Below, one piece after another: positions 3,746 through 55,012 of a stretch of 64,000 nt of DNA (the stretch's first letter is position 1; every line of letters starts with the position of its first letter). Origin of the DNA: Thermoanaerobaculia bacterium (GTDB taxonomy: Bacteria; Acidobacteriota; Thermoanaerobaculia; Multivoradales; JAHZIX01); contig JALXFE010000073.1 of assembly GCA_027069135.1 (NCBI GenBank), positions 16,629 through 80,628 of the forward strand, given 5' to 3'. Position numbers and translations under genes: made by a program. Below the pieces are notes generated by a model. That model did not search any database and was not told the DNA's origin. It was given only the letters and a program-made list of their open reading frames with translations.

Positions 3746-4353
3746 GGCGCCGCGAGCTCTGCCGCTTTGGCTGCGAATCTCTCGGCATCCAGGCGGCGAG
3801 CGGCGAAGCCCCGGCCGAGGGAACCCAATTGGTGCTCCCACCAATCCGGCTTCGGCGCTTCGACGCCCCAGGTTACACCGGGGGAGTAGACCATCCAGAA
3901 ATCCCAGGCCGGCTCCTCGAGGTCGGGGACGAAAGGCTGTACCGCGCCGCCGACCCGACGCTCGCCGTCCCAATAATGAGAGACCCGGTCGCCCTTCATG
4001 AGCTTCATGGCGTTTGCCGTATCTTTTTCCTGGGCCCCGAGCTGGCTGGAGGAGATGACGAAGACCGAGAGATTGGAGATTCCCTGGGCTTTGAGAGCCT
4101 TGTCGACTTCGGAGACCCCCCGAAGACAGACGCCTCACGTGGGGCCCACGAGAAGCACGGCGCGGACGTCCCCGGCGGCGCCGTTGAAGGCCGAACGAAA
4201 GGGTTCGAGATCGGCGCCGACGAGCTCGTAGCCGTCCGGGGCAGCGTCCATGGATCCGGAGGTCCCGGAGGTCGCCCAGCTGAAGACGCCGAAAAGAGCG
4301 ATGCCCAAAACGAGAATGAGGAGCTCGACTTTCAGATAGCGTAGAACCTTCAT
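3742..4353 (-). CDS. Predicted selenoprotein (203 aa): N-terminal membrane anchor plus thioredoxin-like fold with UxxC (U73-G-V-C76), read through TGA at 4135-4137
   Basis: ORFs 4135..4353 and 3742..4008 are in the same frame, and the only stop between them is one TGA. Translation across it reads VRAVLLVGPT-U-GVCLRGVSEV...NAMKLMKGDRVSHYWD. A hairpin follows the UGA directly. Confidence 0.85.
4102..4131 (-). promoter_or_regulatory. Candidate bacterial SECIS element
   Basis: The mRNA after UGA reads GGC GUC UGU CUUCGGG GGGUC UCCGAAG UC GAC. Upper stem CUUCGGG/UCCGAAG, lower stem GUC/GAC, G-starting apical loop 16 nt after the UGA. Folded by eye. Confidence 0.7.
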
Positions 4354-4356
4354 GGA

Positions 4357-4725
4357 TCAAACCCTCCCGGTCAGGAGTTGAACGACGTTGGCCATCACAG
4401 CGAGGGCCCAGAGGATGGCGGAGGACCAGAGCACCCAGCGAACGGCCCGGGGGCGCCGGGTAGAGCAGACCCCTACAGCCTCGGCCCGCTGGCGGTAGAC
4501 GGCGAAGAAGCCGTAGGCCAGGGAGAGGCCCGAAAGGGCGAGGATGGGCAAGCTATAGGGTTTCAGCCCCGCCGCCCAGACGGAGCCGCTGACCCCCAGG
4601 ACACTGACCAGCAGGGGAGCCAGGATCGGCACACAGCACGCGCTGGCGGCGGTGGCCAGGACGGCGGCTCCGGCCCCGGTGGTGGCGGCGCCCCAGGTCT
4701 GAAGGTCCTTCTTTCGGGACTTCAT
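4357..4725 (-). CDS. MerT-like mercuric/heavy-metal transport membrane protein
   Basis: Three hydrophobic segments, a Cys pair in TM1 (ASACCVPIL) and a further loop Cys (GVCST). Start reassigned to ATG 4725, which overlaps the upstream stop (ATGA). Confidence 0.75.
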   Translation of the reverse strand: MKSRKKDLQTWGAATTGAGAAVLATAASACCVPILAPLLVSVLGVSGSVWAAGLKPYSLPILALSGLSLAYGFFAVYRQRAEAVGVCSTRRPRAVRWVLWSSAILWALAVMANVVQLLTGRV

Positions 4726-5159: not shown

Positions 5160-5563
5160 GGTGTGTCCTCTTGAAGAAGCGCGAGGATCGGACATACCCC
5201 GAGGGAGCCCGTCGACTCGCAGCGGCTATGAAGCTCCTCCAACGCACCCCGGATCCGCCGAAGGTCAGCGATGCGTTCCCCGATATCGTCGATTTTCGTC
5301 GCGATCTGCCTCTTCACGTCCGGGCAAGCCGGCTCCGGCGCCTCTCGCAGCGCCAGGAGCTCGGCCACTTCGGCGAGGGAGAATCCCAGCTCCTTGGCCC
5401 GGCGGATGAACCTCAGACTCCGCACCGCATCAGCCGAGTACTGGCGGTAGCCGGAGGCCTTCCGTGGCGGTTCAGCAAGGAGACCCCGTCTCTCGTAATA
5501 GCGCACCGTCTCAACCCCGACGCCAACCTCTCGCGCTAGTTTTCCGATGGTCAGGTGCCTCAT
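5156..5563 (-). CDS. merR: MerR-family metal-responsive regulator, Hg(II)-type Cys pattern
   Basis: N-terminal LTIGKLAREVGVGVETVRYYERRGLL wHTH. From ATG 5563 the Cys residues are C80, C115 and C124 (spacing 35 and 9, as for C82/C117/C126 of Tn21/Tn501 MerR). Confidence 0.85.
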   Translation of the reverse strand: MRHLTIGKLAREVGVGVETVRYYERRGLLAEPPRKASGYRQYSADAVRSLRFIRRAKELGFSLAEVAELLALREAPEPACPDVKRQIATKIDDIGERIADLRRIRGALEELHSRCESTGSLGVCPILALLQEDTP

Positions 5564-5573
5564 GATGGTCCCC

Positions 5574-5605
5574 ATCATAAACCCCGTACCTAAGAACGGG
5601 GTCAA
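5574..5605 (-). promoter_or_regulatory. MerR-type promoter/operator
   Basis: -35 TTGACC (5605-5600), 20-bp spacer, -10 TATGAT (5579-5574). The dyad CCCCGTtC-TTAG-GTACGGGG resembles the mer operator CCGTAC-N4-GTACGG. Confidence 0.85.
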
Positions 5606-5971
5606 GGCTGCTTACCTGACGGAAGTCCAAGGTCTGCGACCCCTGCGACGAAGGCGCCAGTCAACCGAGGGGCTGCGAAGAATAGAGCGAAAGATGAGCC
5701 AGGCGAACTCTCCACCGTCGTTGTCGAGGAGGAGAAAGGTGCTGATACCGGCTCGGGCGTCGAGTTGGATGTAGTGACTGGCCAGGTCCGTTCTGTAGGG
5801 TCAGCAAAATTCCAGTTGAAGTAGGAGGCGTTAGCGGTTTTCTGAAGGTGCTGGAAACTTGGTGTTCGGTGCGCAAGCCTAGTGCCGCGAGGCCTAGAAG
5901 GAGTGCTGTTGGTGTTGGCGATGTGGGCGGTGAGCATGCGGGTGGGCTTCTTTTTCCGCCATAATGTGCCC

Positions 5972-7033
5972 ATGACGACCCAAGACCTCGACTCTCTGCG
6001 CCGCCAAATTCGGGAATTGGACGACCGATTGGTAGAGCTCGCGGCCCAGCGCCAGGACCTGGCTCGGCAAGTGGGGGAGGAGAAGCGGCGGCGGGGGCTG
6101 CCGACGGTGAATTTCGCTCAGGAGCGGGACGTCCTGGAGCGGGCGCGGCGGCGGGCCGAAGAGAGGCGATTGGATCCGAGCCTGGCGGAGGATCTTATGC
6201 TCCGCCTGATCCGGGCTTCGGTGACGGCGCAGGAGGAAGACAGCCTCCGCCATGCCGCCACCGGTGCCGGAGAACAGGCGGTGGTGGTCGGTGGTGCCGG
6301 TCGTATGGGGCGGTGGATCACCCGATTTCTTGAAGCTCAAGGTTTTTCAGTCGCGGTGCTCGATCCTCTGAGGGCGGGCGAGGTGGAGGCTGCCGAAGCC
6401 CTGCTGCCGACGGCACAGCTCGTTCTTTACGCCACACCGCCGGGCCAGACGGCACGGCTCTATCGTGAGCTATGCTCCGCGCCGCCGACGGGCGTCGTAG
6501 CCGACCTGGCCAGCATCAAGACCCCGCTCCTCGAGTCGATCCGAGAGTTGCAGCGGGCGGGGGGGCGAGTGGCGTCGTTTCATCCAATGTTCGGCCCGTC
6601 GACCCTGGTCCTGCGGGACGCCGATGTGCTGATTTGCGAGACCGGCGACCCTTCAGCGACAGCGGCGGTGGAGGCTCTTTTCGAGCCCACGGCGGCCCGC
6701 CGGGTGCATCTGCCGCTGATCGATCACGACCGCCTCATGGCGGACCTCCTGAGCCTCGCCCACGCCACCGCCATCGCGTTCTCGCTAGCACTACCGGACG
6801 CCAACCATCCGGTCCGTAGTACCACGTTCCAGGCCCTCGAGGGGCTGGCTTCGGCGGTCGTGCGGGAGAGCCCGGATCTCTACTACGAGATCCAGGCGGA
6901 CAATCCCCATTCCCTGGCGGCGGTGGAGCGATTGAGGGCGGCGGTGGAGCAGTTGGTGACGGTCGTACGGGCCCGCAGCGTGGACGACTTCCGGGCTTTG
7001 GTAGCAGAGGGCCGCCGCCGCACGGGCCATTAG
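5972..7033 (+). CDS. tyrA: Bifunctional chorismate mutase / prephenate dehydrogenase
   Basis: N-terminal AroQ-like LDSLRRQIRELDDRLVELAAQR..VGEEK; Rossmann VVGGAGRMG; DLASIK, SFHPMFGP, HDRLMA. Start taken at MTTQDL (5972). Confidence 0.9.
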   Translation: MTTQDLDSLRRQIRELDDRLVELAAQRQDLARQVGEEKRRRGLPTVNFAQERDVLERARRRAEERRLDPSLAEDLMLRLIRASVTAQEEDSLRHAATGAGEQAVVVGGAGRMGRWITRFLEAQGFSVAVLDPLRAGEVEAAEALLPTAQLVLYATPPGQTARLYRELCSAPPTGVVADLASIKTPLLESIRELQRAGGRVASFHPMFGPSTLVLRDADVLICETGDPSATAAVEALFEPTAARRVHLPLIDHDRLMADLLSLAHATAIAFSLALPDANHPVRSTTFQALEGLASAVVRESPDLYYEIQADNPHSLAAVERLRAAVEQLVTVVRARSVDDFRALVAEGRRRTGH

Positions 7034-50475: not shown

Positions 50476-51567
50476 CTACCGCACCCGCTCCCGGCGGTTG
50501 CGGATGTAGTCGGAAAGAATGAACTCCCCCAGGTTGTAGGGGGAAGCAAAGTAAGCCCGGCCGCGGTTGATCCGCGTCATCTTCTCCACAAATTCCGTCA
50601 GGAGGGGATCCGTGGCGATCATGAAGGTCGTGATGACCACCTTCCGGCGCCGGCAGGTGTCGGCCTCCTCGAGGGTGCGGTTGACGATACGCATATCGAG
50701 GCCGAAGGGGTTCTTGTAGATCTGCCCCCCCTGGGTTATGGCGGAAGGCTTGCCGTCGGTGATGAGGAAGATCTGTTTATTCGGCTGACGCTGGCGGGCG
50801 AGCAGAGCTCGGGACATCTCCAAAGCTTCGGCGGTGTTGGTGTGGAAGGGGCCGGCCTCGATGTAAGGGAGGTCCGTGAGCTTGATCTGCTCCGCCCGGT
50901 CGCCGAAGAGGATCACACCCAGATGATCTTTAGGATATTTGGAGGTGATCAGCTCCGTTAAGGCCAGGGCGACGGTTTTTGCCGGCGTGATGCGATCCTC
51001 GCCGTAGAGCACCATGGAATGGCTGATATCGATGGCGACGATGGTGGCGCAGGAGGTCTGGTGCTCGGTCTCGTGGACCTCCAGGTCGTCTTCCGTGAGA
51101 TGGAGACTCAACCCCGAGGAACGGCGCAAGGCATTTTGGAGCGAGCGGGCGGCGTCCAAACCGTGGACGTCGTCGCCGAAACGGTAGGGGCGGGTTTCCG
51201 GCAGCCCCTCCTGGCCCTCGCCGACGGCCCTCACCGGGTGATACCCGGGTCCGCCTCGGGAGAGGCCGGAAAAGACTTGCTCGAAGGCCGACTTGCGGAT
51301 CCGGCGTTCGCCGCCGCTGGTGAGGGAAAGGCCCCCTTCGCTATTGCGGGCGACCTGGCGGTTTTCCTCCAGCTGGGCAAAGAAGGCCTCGAGGTCGACG
51401 CTTTCGTCGATATAGCCCTCCTCTTGCAGCTGCCGCATCCACTCCATCGCTTGCTCCACATCCCCCCCGGCCGCCAAGGTCAGCTGGTTGAAGACTCGCT
51501 GCAGCTCCTCTCCGGCCAGGAGTGCCTTCAAGAGCTCCGGATCCAGATAGTGAAAGCGGTGGCGCAT
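50476..51567 (-). CDS. VWA-domain protein, partner type of the ChlI-like ATPase
   Basis: MIDAS elements IDISHSM, TNTAEAL, FLITDGKPSA; ETRPYRFGD. Start taken at ATG 51567. Confidence 0.88.
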   Translation of the reverse strand: MRHRFHYLDPELLKALLAGEELQRVFNQLTLAAGGDVEQAMEWMRQLQEEGYIDESVDLEAFFAQLEENRQVARNSEGGLSLTSGGERRIRKSAFEQVFSGLSRGGPGYHPVRAVGEGQEGLPETRPYRFGDDVHGLDAARSLQNALRRSSGLSLHLTEDDLEVHETEHQTSCATIVAIDISHSMVLYGEDRITPAKTVALALTELITSKYPKDHLGVILFGDRAEQIKLTDLPYIEAGPFHTNTAEALEMSRALLARQRQPNKQIFLITDGKPSAITQGGQIYKNPFGLDMRIVNRTLEEADTCRRRKVVITTFMIATDPLLTEFVEKMTRINRGRAYFASPYNLGEFILSDYIRNRRERVR

Positions 51568-51688: not shown

Positions 51689-52021
51689 TCAGAAATCCGG
51701 AAGGCAGAGGTTGATCCTGCCCCCATTCCAGCATTTGCAGTTTTCACAACAGCCCTGCCAGCACTGACAGTAAAGGCCCGGGTAGGGGCCGAAACACTCA
51801 TCGGTCCAGGAAGCGGTCGTCGTCTCCAGGGGATCTTCGGACACACACACCAGGACCGGCGCCTCGGCCGTGAGATCCTGGGAGGGTTCCGCGATCTTGG
51901 CTGTGTCTTTGGCTACCGGTGTCGTCGAGTCTGCGGGCTCGCTTGATTCCATCGCCGACGATGGCATCGCCAGGAAACCGAGGGCGAGGGTGAGCATGAG
52001 GGTGAGAAGAATTTTCTTCAT
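51689..52021 (-). CDS. Secreted Cys-rich peptide precursor 1 (110 aa: signal, acidic pro-region, 8-Cys core)
   Basis: SD GAAGGAGG then MKKILLTLMLTLALGFLAMPSSA; core CFGPYPGLYCQCWQGCCENCKCWNGGRINLC; paralogous to the upstream gene. Confidence 0.85.
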   Translation of the reverse strand: MKKILLTLMLTLALGFLAMPSSAMESSEPADSTTPVAKDTAKIAEPSQDLTAEAPVLVCVSEDPLETTTASWTDECFGPYPGLYCQCWQGCCENCKCWNGGRINLCLPDF

Positions 52022-52073
52022 GGGGCCTCCTTCAAGAAAGAAGTGATGAGAGACGAGGGGAATCCGTGGGGAC

Positions 52074-52469
52074 TTACAAGGTCGTGTCGACGCATTTAGC
52101 GATATTGCCGGAGTGCCAGCACCGACAGTTCTCGCAGCACCCACCGCAGGTGCAGTAGGCGGGGGGCAGGGGAGGACGAAAGCAGGGGTGGGTGGGCATG
52201 AGGAATTCCGGATCTTCGGTGCCGATGGCCGGCTCGGGAGCCGGTTCGGTGGAGATCGCCGTCTCAGGGGAGAGCACTGTCTCGAGAGACACCTTCAATT
52301 GGCAAGTTTCAGCTGGAGATAGGGTGTCCTGACGCTCTGGGTTTGCCTCTCGGTTTCCCTCAAGGCGGGTCGGCGTTTCCGCCAGCTCGCTGGCGAAGAC
52401 TCCCGATCCGGCGACCAGGAAAGCGGTCACCATCACACAACTCATCCGGACTAAAGAGGATCGGCTCAT
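52074..52469 (-). CDS. Secreted Cys-rich peptide precursor 2 (131 aa)
   Basis: SD AAGGAG then MSRSSLVRMSCVMVTAFLVAGSGVFA; core CFRPPLPPAYCTCGGCCENCRCWHSGNIAKC. Confidence 0.85.
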   Translation of the reverse strand: MSRSSLVRMSCVMVTAFLVAGSGVFASELAETPTRLEGNREANPERQDTLSPAETCQLKVSLETVLSPETAISTEPAPEPAIGTEDPEFLMPTHPCFRPPLPPAYCTCGGCCENCRCWHSGNIAKCVDTTL

Positions 52470-52504
52470 GCTGTACTCCTTCCAAGAAATCAATCGTTGG
52501 ACGG

Positions 52505-52534
52505 AGTGTACATGTAAAGTTTCGATAATGTCTA
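52505..52534 (-). promoter_or_regulatory. Putative promoter of the peptide pair
   Basis: TAGACA (52534-52529), 18-bp spacer, TACACT (52510-52505), in an AT-rich patch; palindrome CTCACCGCGGTGAG upstream at 52551-52564. Confidence 0.45.
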
Positions 52535-52571: not shown

Positions 52572-54059
52572 TTAGTTAACGTCCCGGTCTCCTCGCTTGC
52601 GGCGGGGTTTGAGCAGATGAAATTTGACCAGCTCCTTGTAGGAGATATGGCTGTCCATGTCTTCCCGGGCGAGCTTCAGGTGCTGGTGGAGGCCCTCGAG
52701 GATGACCTCCGCGCCGAGGGCCCGATCCTGGGGAGTCTCACCGAAGCTTTCCGCCAAATCCAGGAGGCCTGGAACCCGATCCAGCGCCCCCTGATACTCC
52801 TCGAAGGTCTGGTCGTCAGAGACCGTGATGGAACCGCCCGCGGCGAACCATTGGACCATCGAGGCATAAGGGCCGGTATCGTCCTCTCCGCCGCTCCCGA
52901 CCTCGCGGCCGACCTCCGGAAAACGCTCATCGAAAATCTTCTTCACGGCCTGGCCGATAATCTGTCGGGCGACGAGCTCGGGGCCCTGCTGCTCGCCCTC
53001 GTAGACCACCTCCACCTTGCCGGTGATGGCCGGGAGCAACATATGCAGATCGCTGAGCCGGGCGCTGACGTCCTCTTCGCCGTGGGCCAAAGCACGGCGT
53101 TCGAGGTTGGAGGCTAGAAGCTCCAGGCCGGCGATGGCCACCCGGGCACTGACTCCGGAAGTTTGATCGACCAGATCGCTTCCCCGGGCGGCGAAGGTGA
53201 TCTCTTCCACCAGGTGGCGAACCGCATCGCTGATCCGCACCCCGGGGATGTCGCGATCCGTCCAGGCCTCCTGCCGAGTAATCTGGGCGGCCACTTCTAT
53301 CCCGGCGGGGTAGTGGGTGAGGATCTGGGAGGAGATGCGGTCTTTGAGCGGCGTGATAATGCTGCCCCGATGGGTGTAATCCTCCGGGTTGGCAGAAAAG
53401 ACCATCAACATATCGAGGGGAATGCGAACGGGAAAGCCCCGAATTTGGAGGTCCCGTTCCTCCAGAAGATTCAGCAGACCGACCTGGATGCGAGGGGCTA
53501 GGTCCGGGAGCTCGTTGATGGCGAAGATGCCCCGGTTGGTGCGGGGAACGATGCCGAAGTGGATCACTTCCGGATCCGCGAAGGTGAGCTTGCGGGTCGC
53601 CGCCTTGATGGGGTCGATATCCCCCAGGAGGTCGGCGATGGAGACGTCCGGGGTGGCGAGTTTCTCCCCATACCGATCCTCCCGGGCCAACCAGCCGATG
53701 GGGGCTTCGTCCCCGGTCTCCGCCAGGTGCCGCTGGGCCCACACGGAGATGGGAGCCATGGGATCGTCGTTGAGCTCGGATCCTTCCAGCACCGGCACCT
53801 CCGGGTCCAGGAAACGCACGAGGCCCCGCAGCAGTCGCGTCTTGGCCTGGCCGCGCAGCCCTAAGAGGATGAAGTCATGGCCGGCGAGGACGGCGTTGAG
53901 GATTCCGGGGATCACCGTGCGGTCGTAGCCGAGAATTCCCGGGAAAAGCTCCTCACGGTCCTTGATGGCCCGGCGCAGATTGGCCCGTAGCTCCTCTTTG
54001 ACAGTGCGGGGTCGGTAGCCCGAGGCCCGGAGCTCGCCAAGGGACCTGGGCCTCGCCAT
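52572..54059 (-). CDS. Magnesium-chelatase ChlI-like AAA+ ATPase
   Basis: LLGLRGQAKTRL, GEKLATPD, FAINELPDLAPRIQVGLLN, FSANPEDYTHRGSIITPLKDR; ATG 54059 overlaps the trxB stop. Confidence 0.88.
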   Translation of the reverse strand: MARPRSLGELRASGYRPRTVKEELRANLRRAIKDREELFPGILGYDRTVIPGILNAVLAGHDFILLGLRGQAKTRLLRGLVRFLDPEVPVLEGSELNDDPMAPISVWAQRHLAETGDEAPIGWLAREDRYGEKLATPDVSIADLLGDIDPIKAATRKLTFADPEVIHFGIVPRTNRGIFAINELPDLAPRIQVGLLNLLEERDLQIRGFPVRIPLDMLMVFSANPEDYTHRGSIITPLKDRISSQILTHYPAGIEVAAQITRQEAWTDRDIPGVRISDAVRHLVEEITFAARGSDLVDQTSGVSARVAIAGLELLASNLERRALAHGEEDVSARLSDLHMLLPAITGKVEVVYEGEQQGPELVARQIIGQAVKKIFDERFPEVGREVGSGGEDDTGPYASMVQWFAAGGSITVSDDQTFEEYQGALDRVPGLLDLAESFGETPQDRALGAEVILEGLHQHLKLAREDMDSHISYKELVKFHLLKPRRKRGDRDVN

Positions 54060-55012
54060 CAGTCCTGCTCCTCGAGCCAACGCTCGGCATCGATGGCCGC
54101 GGCACAACCGGAACCCGCGGCAGTGATCGCCTGGCGGTAGGTCGGATCCATCGCGTCACCACACGCGAAAACACCCTCTACGCCCGTCGTGGTGGAGGGG
54201 GACTTCACCTCGATGTAGCCGACTTCATCGAGGTCGAGCTGACCTTCGAAAATCTCGGTATTGGGCTTGTGGCCGATGGCCATGAAGATGCCCTGGGTTT
54301 GGAAGGTACTCTCCTCGCCGGTCTTCGTATCCTTGAGCCGAAGGGCATGGACACCTTCCTTCCGGCTGCCGAGGATCTCCGCCACATTCTTGTTCCAGAG
54401 GAATTCCACCTTATCGTTCTTGAGCGCCCGTTCCTGCATGATCTTCGAGGCCCGAAGCTCCTCGCGGCGATGGATGACGGTGACCTTGGAAGCGAATTTC
54501 GTCAGGTAGGTCGCTTCTTCCATGGCGGAATCACCGCCGCCGACCACGGCGATCTCCTTCCCCTTGAAGAAGAAACCGTCGCAGGTGGCGCAGGCGGAGA
54601 CCCCGTAACCCATCAGGTGCTCTTCGGAAGGTAGCCCGAGAAGGCGGGCCGCCGCACCGGTAGCGATGATGAGCGAATCCGCCAGATACTGCCCCTCGTC
54701 AGTGCGGATCGTGAAGGGACGCTTGGAGAGGTCCACCTCGTTGGCGAGCTCGAATTTCACCGAAGCACCGAAGCGTTGCACCTGCTGCCGCATCCGGTCC
54801 ATGAGCTCCGGGCCGAGGATTCCTTGAGGGAAGCCCGGGAAATTCTCCACATCCGTCGTGATGGTCAGCTGACCTCCCGGTTGCAGGCCTTCCAGCACCA
54901 GGGGCTCGAGACCGGCTCGGGCGTTGTACAGGGCGGCGGTGAGGCCGGCGGGGCCGGATCCGAGGATGACGACGCGGTGGCGAGTTGGATCTTGTGCAGT
55001 GTCTGCAGACAT
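54059..55012 (-). CDS. trxB: Thioredoxin-disulfide reductase
   Basis: [34 protein letters not shown] (CxxC), [24 protein letters not shown]. Start taken at ATG 55012. Confidence 0.98.

Follow-up and report, generated by a model that had tools for sequence, protein, structure and literature searches.

Two small genes of a Thermoanaerobaculia bacterium predicted to encode exported, disulfide-rich mini-proteins of a lineage-restricted family

What do two short, adjacent genes with cysteine-dense C termini encode in a bacterium of the phylum Acidobacteriota? The genes, here named pepA and pepB, lie on the minus strand of a 64,000-nucleotide stretch of contig JALXFE010000073.1 from a Thermoanaerobaculia bacterium (assembly GCA_027069135.1), and this entire stretch is what we call the window. 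An initial annotation of the window had described them as tandem genes for secreted Cys-rich peptides of toxin- or defensin-like architecture, and had proposed that they belong to an unrecognized bacterial family of four-disulfide mini-proteins. Based on the conservation, layout and genomic contexts of these genes and their relatives, we propose with moderate confidence that pepA and pepB are genuine genes that stand alone and encode a lineage-restricted mini-protein of roughly 35 residues that would be exported by the Sec pathway, would be held together by four disulfides and would bind a target.

Eight core Cys residues, as claimed by the initial annotation, are present in both proteins, and the core spans 35-36 residues with the framework C-x8/9-C-x-C-x2/3-CC-x2-C-x-C-W-x8-C. 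The two genes are indeed paralogous, as their cores are 53% identical (BLASTP E 2e-10), and this likeness is not due to chance because ~16 more sequences, taken from other genomes, show this layout and this Cys framework. When 16 cores are aligned, one Pro of a Pro-Pro motif, six Cys and a Trp are invariant; the full complement of eight core Cys is found in 16 of the 18 sequences and six core Cys in the other two. The invariant Trp and the Pro-Pro motif point to a fold that would be packed. Three subtypes can be told apart, namely A (GGCC..CRCW..G.[IL]AKC), B (G[SQ]CC..CKCWQGY.LALC) and C (CECGFCCIDCGCWQTR.PVPC). A tree of the cores is too weak to place pepB or to date the A/B duplication. Since synonymous divergence (dS) is saturated between orthologs, only the contrast in nonsynonymous divergence (dN) between the core and the more N-terminal spacer is usable: dN is 0.25-0.56 in the core and 0.73-1.5 in the spacer, and it is lower in the core in 8/8 comparisons. 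That the core changes more slowly at this depth, despite saturated synonymous sites, argues that selection acts on these genes, the scaffold being fixed and the loops and spacer changing fast.

Upstream of the core, all 18 sequences gathered share the layout that the initial annotation had read from the two genes, a signal peptide followed by a spacer and then the Cys core. By a rule-based check of n-, h- and c-regions and of positions -3 and -1, 18/18 start with a basic N-terminus that leads into a hydrophobic stretch, and they have an AxA-like site between residues 18 and 33, so that a cleavable Sec signal is predicted throughout the family; none of these signals contains a twin-arginine motif. 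The spacers of both proteins are rich in Pro, Thr, Glu and Ala, and each holds one Cys. In pepA the spacer is 69 aa long with a net charge of -10 (P10 T9 E12) and is little conserved among relatives, and in pepB it is acidic and ~52 aa long (residues 24-75; 43 aa and net -7 in a crude screen that placed the cleavage site later). By a crude split, spacer length ranges from 38 to 69 aa across the family. The ninth, spacer-borne Cys is present in ~11/18 sequences and absent in ~7/18, and looser F/W-L patches occur in the spacers of most family members. We found no dibasic or other recognizable cleavage site in the spacer and no dedicated protease gene nearby.

Coordinates of these features are collected in the table below. 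The gene and core positions given in the initial annotation are all correct, its core ends differing from ours by the stop codons, and the strong Shine-Dalgarno sequence that it saw before each gene can be read at both starts. Upstream of pepA, a scan for sigma-70-like promoters found 1 site where 0.3 were expected, a consensus match alone that is no proof of promoter function.

Table. Features of pepA and pepB, their flanking genes and a candidate oxidizing enzyme. Positions are those of the window, except for the VKOR fusion, which lies on another contig of the same genome.
Feature	Position	Strand	Detail	Basis
pepA (P0001, A-type)	52074..52469 incl. stop	minus	131 aa, ATG at 52469	ORF (open reading frame) and translation
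pepB (P0002, B-like)	51689..52021 incl. stop	minus	110 aa, ATG at 52021	ORF and translation
pepA Shine-Dalgarno, GGAAGGAG	52476..52483	minus	6 nt 5' of ATG	read off sequence
pepB Shine-Dalgarno, GAAGGAGG	52026..52033	minus	4 nt 5' of ATG	read off sequence
Weak sigma-70-like promoter match, TAGACA-18-TACACT	52505..52534	minus	upstream of pepA	consensus scan
pepA predicted signal peptide	52392..52469	minus	residues 1-26, predicted site between VFA and SE	rule-based n/h/c-region and -3/-1 check
pepB predicted signal peptide	51953..52021	minus	residues 1-23, predicted site between SSA and ME	rule-based check; AlphaFold helix residues 3-17, pLDDT ~80
pepA acidic Pro/Thr/Glu-rich spacer or pro-region	52185..52391	minus	residues 27-95, Cys56 at 52302..52304	composition
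pepB acidic spacer or pro-region	51797..51952	minus	residues 24-75, Cys59 at 51845..51847	composition
pepA 8-Cys core, CFRPPLPPAYCTCGGCCENCRCWHSGNIAKCVDTTL	52077..52184	minus	residues 96-131; Cys 96, 106, 108, 111, 112, 115, 117, 126	
pepB 8-Cys core, CFGPYPGLYCQCWQGCCENCKCWNGGRINLCLPDF	51692..51796	minus	residues 76-110; Cys 76, 85, 87, 91, 92, 95, 97, 106	
AAA_5 / Mg-chelatase-like ATPase, upstream neighbor	52572..54107	minus		Pfam AAA_5 E 5.3e-5
VWA-domain protein, downstream neighbor	50476..51567	minus		Pfam VWA_2 E 1.9e-9
VKOR + Thioredoxin_4 (DsbA-like) fusion	G000:C576:10021-11259	minus	one 477-aa frame	

How widely is this family distributed? It comprises ~18 distinct sequences of 105-131 aa, all from metagenome-assembled genomes (MAGs) of Acidobacteriota belonging to one order. 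With pepA as the query, a full HMMER scan through 1.84 billion representative proteins returned six true relatives (E 1.8e-16 to 2.7e-4) together with one spurious repeat protein; a few further members came from 5.8 billion clustered proteins searched with a profile, and pepB gave a profile match at E 4.3e-16. A word-indexed search of the 5.8 billion clustered proteins with P0002 recovered only P0002 itself, a core-restricted search with P0001 recovered only P0001 itself, and the JGI metagenome contigs held no relative. Members are encoded in four of the six species genomes of the source's GTDB family, in 1-3 copies each. Genome samples of the class (401) and the phylum (401) added two members, which come from a single further family of this order, and nothing else credible. 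The genera in which the reading frame, the layout and the Cys framework are kept number at least three, and the GTDB families at least two. One of the relatives, P0010 (locus tag K0U98), comes from the same-genus genome G001, which appears to be listed at NCBI as 'MAG: Deltaproteobacteria bacterium'; its relatives are labeled Acidobacteria, and the Deltaproteobacteria label is probably a taxonomic mislabel.

Neither protein matched Pfam or NCBIfam at E <= 1, beyond two NCBIfam lines that lie far under the cut-offs and span no more than the pepB signal peptide. The public copies that carry a source name are all annotated as 'hypothetical protein', the literature yielded nothing on this family, and the accessions of the source MAGs are mentioned in no paper. 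The proposal of an unrecognized bacterial family thus stands as far as Pfam and NCBIfam are concerned, but the family is far smaller and more restricted than that wording implies (~18 sequences, one order); it is, on the search for family size that the initial annotation had recommended, real but tiny. A credible match to a characterized family, which would have spoken against that proposal, was found in none of Pfam, NCBIfam and the PDB.

Whether the core is oxidized to disulfides can be approached through the two members that lack part of the framework. These six-Cys cores, P0009 (A-type, genus g3) and a divergent member from another family (genome G056), differ in genus and subtype and are without exactly Cys1 and Cys6. 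The two residues are thus both present in 16 sequences, both absent in 2 and discordant in none (Fisher p 0.0065 when sequences are counted, a pattern that amounts to two evolutionary events). Their joint loss suggests a Cys1-Cys6 bond, which is a concrete prediction of connectivity. The genome also provides a means of oxidation: a VKOR-DsbA fusion is probably the organism's main periplasmic disulfide-forming enzyme, and two further DsbA-like proteins are encoded. Taken together, the Sec-type signal, these VKOR-DsbA and DsbA-like genes and the paired loss of Cys1 and Cys6 make four core disulfides plausible.

Structure prediction gives limited guidance about the fold. An AlphaFold model from a 16-row alignment of the core has a mean predicted local distance difference test (pLDDT) score of 51.8 and contains a single hairpin. 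In the model of full-length pepB (17 rows, mean pLDDT 59.8), the signal peptide forms a helix at ~80, the spacer is without secondary structure at 43-56, and the core reaches 62-66 with three short strands (residues 91-93, 96-99 and 102-105). No helix is predicted in the core by these low-confidence models. A Foldseek search against the PDB gave one meaningless match (E 9.6). A small beta mini-domain is therefore the only structural hint that the models offer.

Does the family belong to one of the known classes of disulfide-rich peptides? The likeness to defensins or knottins drawn by the initial annotation does not hold: the cysteine-stabilized alpha-beta (CS-alpha-beta) pattern is absent from 18/18 sequences, no core helix is predicted, and the loops between the first Cys (1 and 2-3 residues) are below the usual knottin length. 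For defensins we used a Zhu-type expression, C-x(2,18)-C-x3-C-x(2,10)-[GAPSIDERYW]-x-C-x(4,17)-C-x-C, and it matched 0/18 family sequences. A modified version of this expression was used in a survey of bacterial cis-defensins, which fall into five classes, with xanthusin-1 of Myxococcus xanthus as an example (PMC11561630). These proteins bear a signal, an unstructured N-terminal tail and a disulfide-stabilized C-terminal domain, and they are rare and patchily distributed, one of them being reported from Acidobacteria (PMC11561630). The pepA/pepB family resembles them in being small, signal-bearing, rare and patchy, with an N-terminal part predicted to be disordered and a C-terminal Cys domain, but it lacks the cysteine-stabilized alpha-helix motif (CxxxC ... 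CxC across a helix and a sheet) that defines defensins. Nor is a helix tied to a sheet by two parallel disulfides predicted, as the models show short strands only, which is weak evidence at their low confidence. Because the CS-alpha-beta pattern is missing throughout and no core helix is predicted, we do not regard the family as cis-defensins.

The precursors of animal knottins and conotoxins resemble the family in layout, with signal, pro-region and Cys core, the order C-C-CC-C-C among the six invariant Cys, fast-changing loops and tandem duplicates. In the knottin framework, the two loops before CC have ~3-7 and 4-6 residues, and the cystine knot is formed by disulfides I-IV, II-V and III-VI, the third threading the ring of the first two. 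Here the C-C-CC-C-C order is present but those loop lengths are not; the family further differs in its two extra Cys, and it has neither a fold match nor homology to knottins. With respect to its proposed mode of production, the closest bacterial analog is the heat-stable enterotoxin STa of Escherichia coli (Enterotoxin_ST). STa has a Sec signal, a pro-region that is removed and a short Cys-rich core that is oxidized by DsbA in the periplasm without dedicated enzymes, forms three disulfides in <20 residues and has a known outer-membrane route and receptor. The two share a stand-alone gene, a Sec signal, a pro-region-like spacer and a C-terminal Cys core; they differ in lineage and ecology, with no sequence relationship (no Pfam match at E <= 1) and no sign of toxicity in pepA/pepB.

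The genomic neighborhood bears on whether pepA and pepB act with other genes. The pair is flanked by an ATPase gene on one side and a VWA gene on the other, in the same orientation as pepA and pepB, and this placement is also found in the same-genus genome G001 (one A-type gene) and in GCA_020439705.1 (A and B in tandem). Other members are flanked instead by a Ser/Thr kinase-TPR gene, by FG-GAP/ASPIC and GNAT genes, by imuB-dnaE2 and a pyrophosphatase gene, by FtsX permease and M3 peptidase genes, or by esterase and DUF11 genes. Across these six different neighborhoods, there is no common partner, modifying enzyme, dedicated exporter, protease, oxidoreductase or immunity-like small gene. Since no gene is common to the six contexts, pepA and pepB appear to be stand-alone genes. 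The initial annotation had noted that no enzyme modifying ribosomally synthesized and post-translationally modified peptides (RiPPs) is adjacent, and this can be extended: none is found within ~10 kb or linked in any of the six contexts, and genes of the radical-SAM, LanB/C/M, YcaO or peptidase-ABC kinds are missing from the window flanks as well as from the other five. The local G+C content is not atypical, and the wider surroundings consist of housekeeping genes.

A functional link to the flanking genes was considered and rejected. The ATPase (~500 aa) and the VWA protein (~360 aa) form a tightly linked pair, kept at 45-75% identity in Acidobacteriota, Planctomycetota, Spirochaetia, Bacteroidota, Ignavibacteria and others. 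Among 80 loci examined (L023-L102), most have the two genes side by side, 4-150 bp apart, and members of the pepA/pepB family from other genera occupy five other contexts. Neither protein of the pair reaches a curated cut-off of a specific NCBIfam model. We conclude that the ATPase and VWA neighbors are probably not functional partners of pepA and pepB, whose position between them would be explained by insertion into a permissive intergenic spot in one genus.

Based on these observations, we propose the following course for the gene products. Each precursor would be exported by the Sec pathway and then cut by signal peptidase I at its AxA-like site. In the periplasm, VKOR-DsbA would oxidize the eight core Cys to four disulfides, one of them Cys1-Cys6, to give a small, proline-capped, three-stranded beta mini-domain, a shape drawn from a model of low confidence. 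The acidic spacer, which is predicted to be disordered and bears one Cys and a short hydrophobic patch, could aid oxidative folding and then be removed, or it could stay in place as a flexible tail. The thiol in the pro-region of BPTI has been shown to assist oxidative folding, and by analogy the spacer Cys could act as a tethered thiol in this process; it could also form an intermolecular bond. Once folded, the core would bind a target beyond the cytoplasm; it could serve, for instance, as an inhibitor, as an antagonist of other organisms or as an effector toward a host or prey. A binding effector fits because the genes are stand-alone, occur as 1-3 paralogs that are often in tandem, and combine a rigid Cys scaffold with fast loops and an acidic spacer. 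As to the kind of target, the core has a net charge of -1 to +3, nearly neutral and unlike that of typical cationic antimicrobial peptides, and there is no adjacent immunity gene, which weighs against a bacteriocin harming the producer's own kind; a classical cationic antimicrobial or a self-directed bacteriocin is therefore disfavored. An inhibitor, or an effector against organisms unlike the producer, would fit somewhat better.

Besides this charge and this missing immunity gene, several other observations weigh against our proposal and give room to its rivals. Core pairwise dN/dS is 0.24-0.96, not uniformly low, with dS saturated; the confidence of the core models is low both for the core alone and in the full-length protein (51.8 and 62-66), with no Foldseek match; Sec export in a diderm ends in the periplasm, and no outer-membrane route was identified; and seven Cys within 12 residues (CxCxxCCxxCxC) are also compatible with a metal-thiolate site. 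This last point introduces the main rival, an exported metal-binding mini-domain (metallothionein-like, or a Cu, Zn or Fe-S site) perhaps working with the MoxR-like AAA/VWA pair, which we consider unlikely. It draws on that Cys density, with its CxC, CC and CxxC motifs, on the poor AlphaFold model, as might be expected of a fold that requires metal, and on the position of the genes inside the AAA/VWA pair in genus g1, as AAA/VWA pairs often act in metal-cofactor insertion. It also draws on the sole PDB profile match, at E 0.21, to the stretch CRCWRSGxxxxC, which binds the cluster in the plant NEET (CDGSH) protein 3s2q: pepA Cys115-Cys126 (52092..52127, C-R-C-W-H-S-G-N-I-A-K-C) has the C-x-C-x8-C spacing and several residues of this 2Fe-2S-binding stretch, and C-x-C-W-x-S-G-x4-C equals the CDGSH ligand spacing. 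We judged this resemblance to be due to chance, as there is neither a His ligand nor a CDGSH signature, and Cys6, with which the triad begins, is dispensable; compared with the pattern C-x-C-x2-(S/T)-x3-P-x-C-D-G-(S/A/T)-H, the family lacks DG(S/A/T)H, and two members also lack the first Cys. A Sec signal without twin-arginine motif would moreover deliver the protein unfolded into an oxidizing compartment with VKOR-DsbA, Cys6 is lost only along with Cys1, as a disulfide pair would be, and the AAA/VWA linkage is missing outside one genus. Metallothioneins are likewise not matched in Pfam or NCBIfam, in Pfam not even at E <= 1 (nor is zf-CDGSH), and the invariant Trp and conserved aromatics are atypical for them; metallothioneins are cytoplasmic, aromatic-poor thiolate-cluster proteins, from which the Sec signal also sets the family apart.

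The spacer may also be more than a discarded pro-region. If it were retained, the mature protein would be a Cys-rich binding module on a disordered acidic stalk in the periplasm or envelope, where it might serve as an inhibitor or a structural adaptor, the ninth Cys linking it to a partner or a second copy. We regard this as rather improbable, while acknowledging that it would account for the lack of a recognizable cleavage site and a dedicated protease gene, for the odd number of Cys in those members that have the ninth, and for the six contexts in which the flanks are ordinary genes with no linked outer-membrane export system. The near-free change of the spacer in sequence and length (dN up to 1.5) is typical of discarded pro-regions, though it fits linkers too, and the members without the ninth Cys speak against a general linking role. 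That the genes encode RiPP precursors, with an N-terminal leader and Cys modified to thioethers or sactionine-type links by enzymes encoded elsewhere, is highly improbable: a Cys-rich C-terminal core does follow a long, variable N-terminal part, and a lanthipeptide-like precursor occurs in the same AAA-VWA gap of other Acidobacteriota, but all members have Sec signals with AxA sites, no gene for a modifying enzyme lies in the flanks or in the six contexts, and the RiPP precursor models in NCBIfam gave no match. Already very unlikely, and to our minds scarcely credible, is that these are chance ORFs or decaying, functionless remnants in a G+C-rich intergenic insert. The rarity of the family, with P0002 alone among 5.8 billion clustered proteins and none in JGI metagenome contigs, would suit this explanation; set against it are the eight invariant core columns, the frame, the signal and the Shine-Dalgarno sequence, all kept between genera whose synonymous sites are saturated, and the tandem of A and B kept in a second genome.

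Having weighed these alternatives, we return to the exported, four-disulfide binding protein and to its place among known systems. The family that the pair represents is new in its sequence and in its cysteine framework, and we place it in a known class, that of exported, disulfide-rich mini-proteins that need no dedicated enzyme; we see the pair as one more lineage-specific orphan family of a common, unstudied format and not as a new principle. If the core does fold by itself with four disulfides, it would be a new scaffold among the few enzyme-independent disulfide-rich peptides of bacteria. Such scaffolds are of interest to peptide engineers and bear on how uncultured Acidobacteriota deal with their neighbors. 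The family's main value, as matters stand, lies in being a catalog entry and a candidate for expression.

The same format recurs elsewhere in the genome. A crude whole-genome screen, in which a small ORF had to combine a signal-like N-terminus with six or more Cys in the last 45 residues, returned 15 ORFs, namely pepA, pepB and 13 others (on contigs C97, C137, C182, C239, C241, C290, C342, C393, C447, C465, C603, C611 and C626 of the source genome, G000). These 13 are unrelated to pepA and pepB, and several have an acidic spacer rich in Pro, Thr, Glu and Ala. The C342 protein, with at least 16 Cys, has homologs in several families of the order, and looser F/W-L patches occur in its family; the C393 protein is an orphan. 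This lineage appears to possess a whole set of exported Cys-rich mini-proteins. A motif F[LF]x[GP][TS] is found in the spacer of four unrelated Cys-rich ORFs (pepA, C342, C393 and C611) as against 4/667 other small signal-bearing ORFs; examples are DPEFLMPT, APFLAGT, PVFLAGS and PAFLPGT, and in pepA the hydrophobic patch is FLMPT (residues 87-91, 52197..52211). The p of 1.3e-5 for this motif is inflated because the motif was defined after the sequences had been seen, and we treat it as a lead, not a result. A bolder and rather doubtful extension of our proposal would make the core a new four-disulfide fold without a solved relative, formed without enzymes of its own and encoded by one of a lineage-wide repertoire of genes for signal, acidic spacer and Cys core. 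The spacer patch (FLxP/G-T/S) and the Cys would be a shared handle for folding or processing, and the whole would be a bacterial counterpart of the venom-peptide superfamilies, with secreted binders aimed at competitors, at prey or at an animal host.

The spot between the ATPase and VWA genes also holds other genes in the closest such loci of other Acidobacteriota (L023, L027, L028 and L030), where the gap is widened to 0.5-1.1 kb and carries unrelated cargo. On the opposite strand (~5500-6550 in locus coordinates), the widened gaps encode a ~57-aa peptide with six Cys, MKKRNLKLxLSxETLR...GG..CxFTCTxS...CCATGGxANSCPC, whose leader weakly resembles the class I lanthipeptide leader NF038153 of NCBIfam (E 5.5e-4; 20 bits, where the cut-off is 22). 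A second ORF, of ~200 aa, lies in these gaps on the plus strand (L027 ~5850-6450, L028 ~5900-6470, L030 ~3880-4470; MAIAQTKPxLSPAEYLEIERAAETKSEYIEGEMYAMSGASY...); it has no significant NCBIfam match, and we take it to be a look-alike of Uma2/DUF820-type endonucleases. Since unrelated genes for Cys-rich peptides are found in one and the same ATPase-VWA gap, this spot has been filled more than once.

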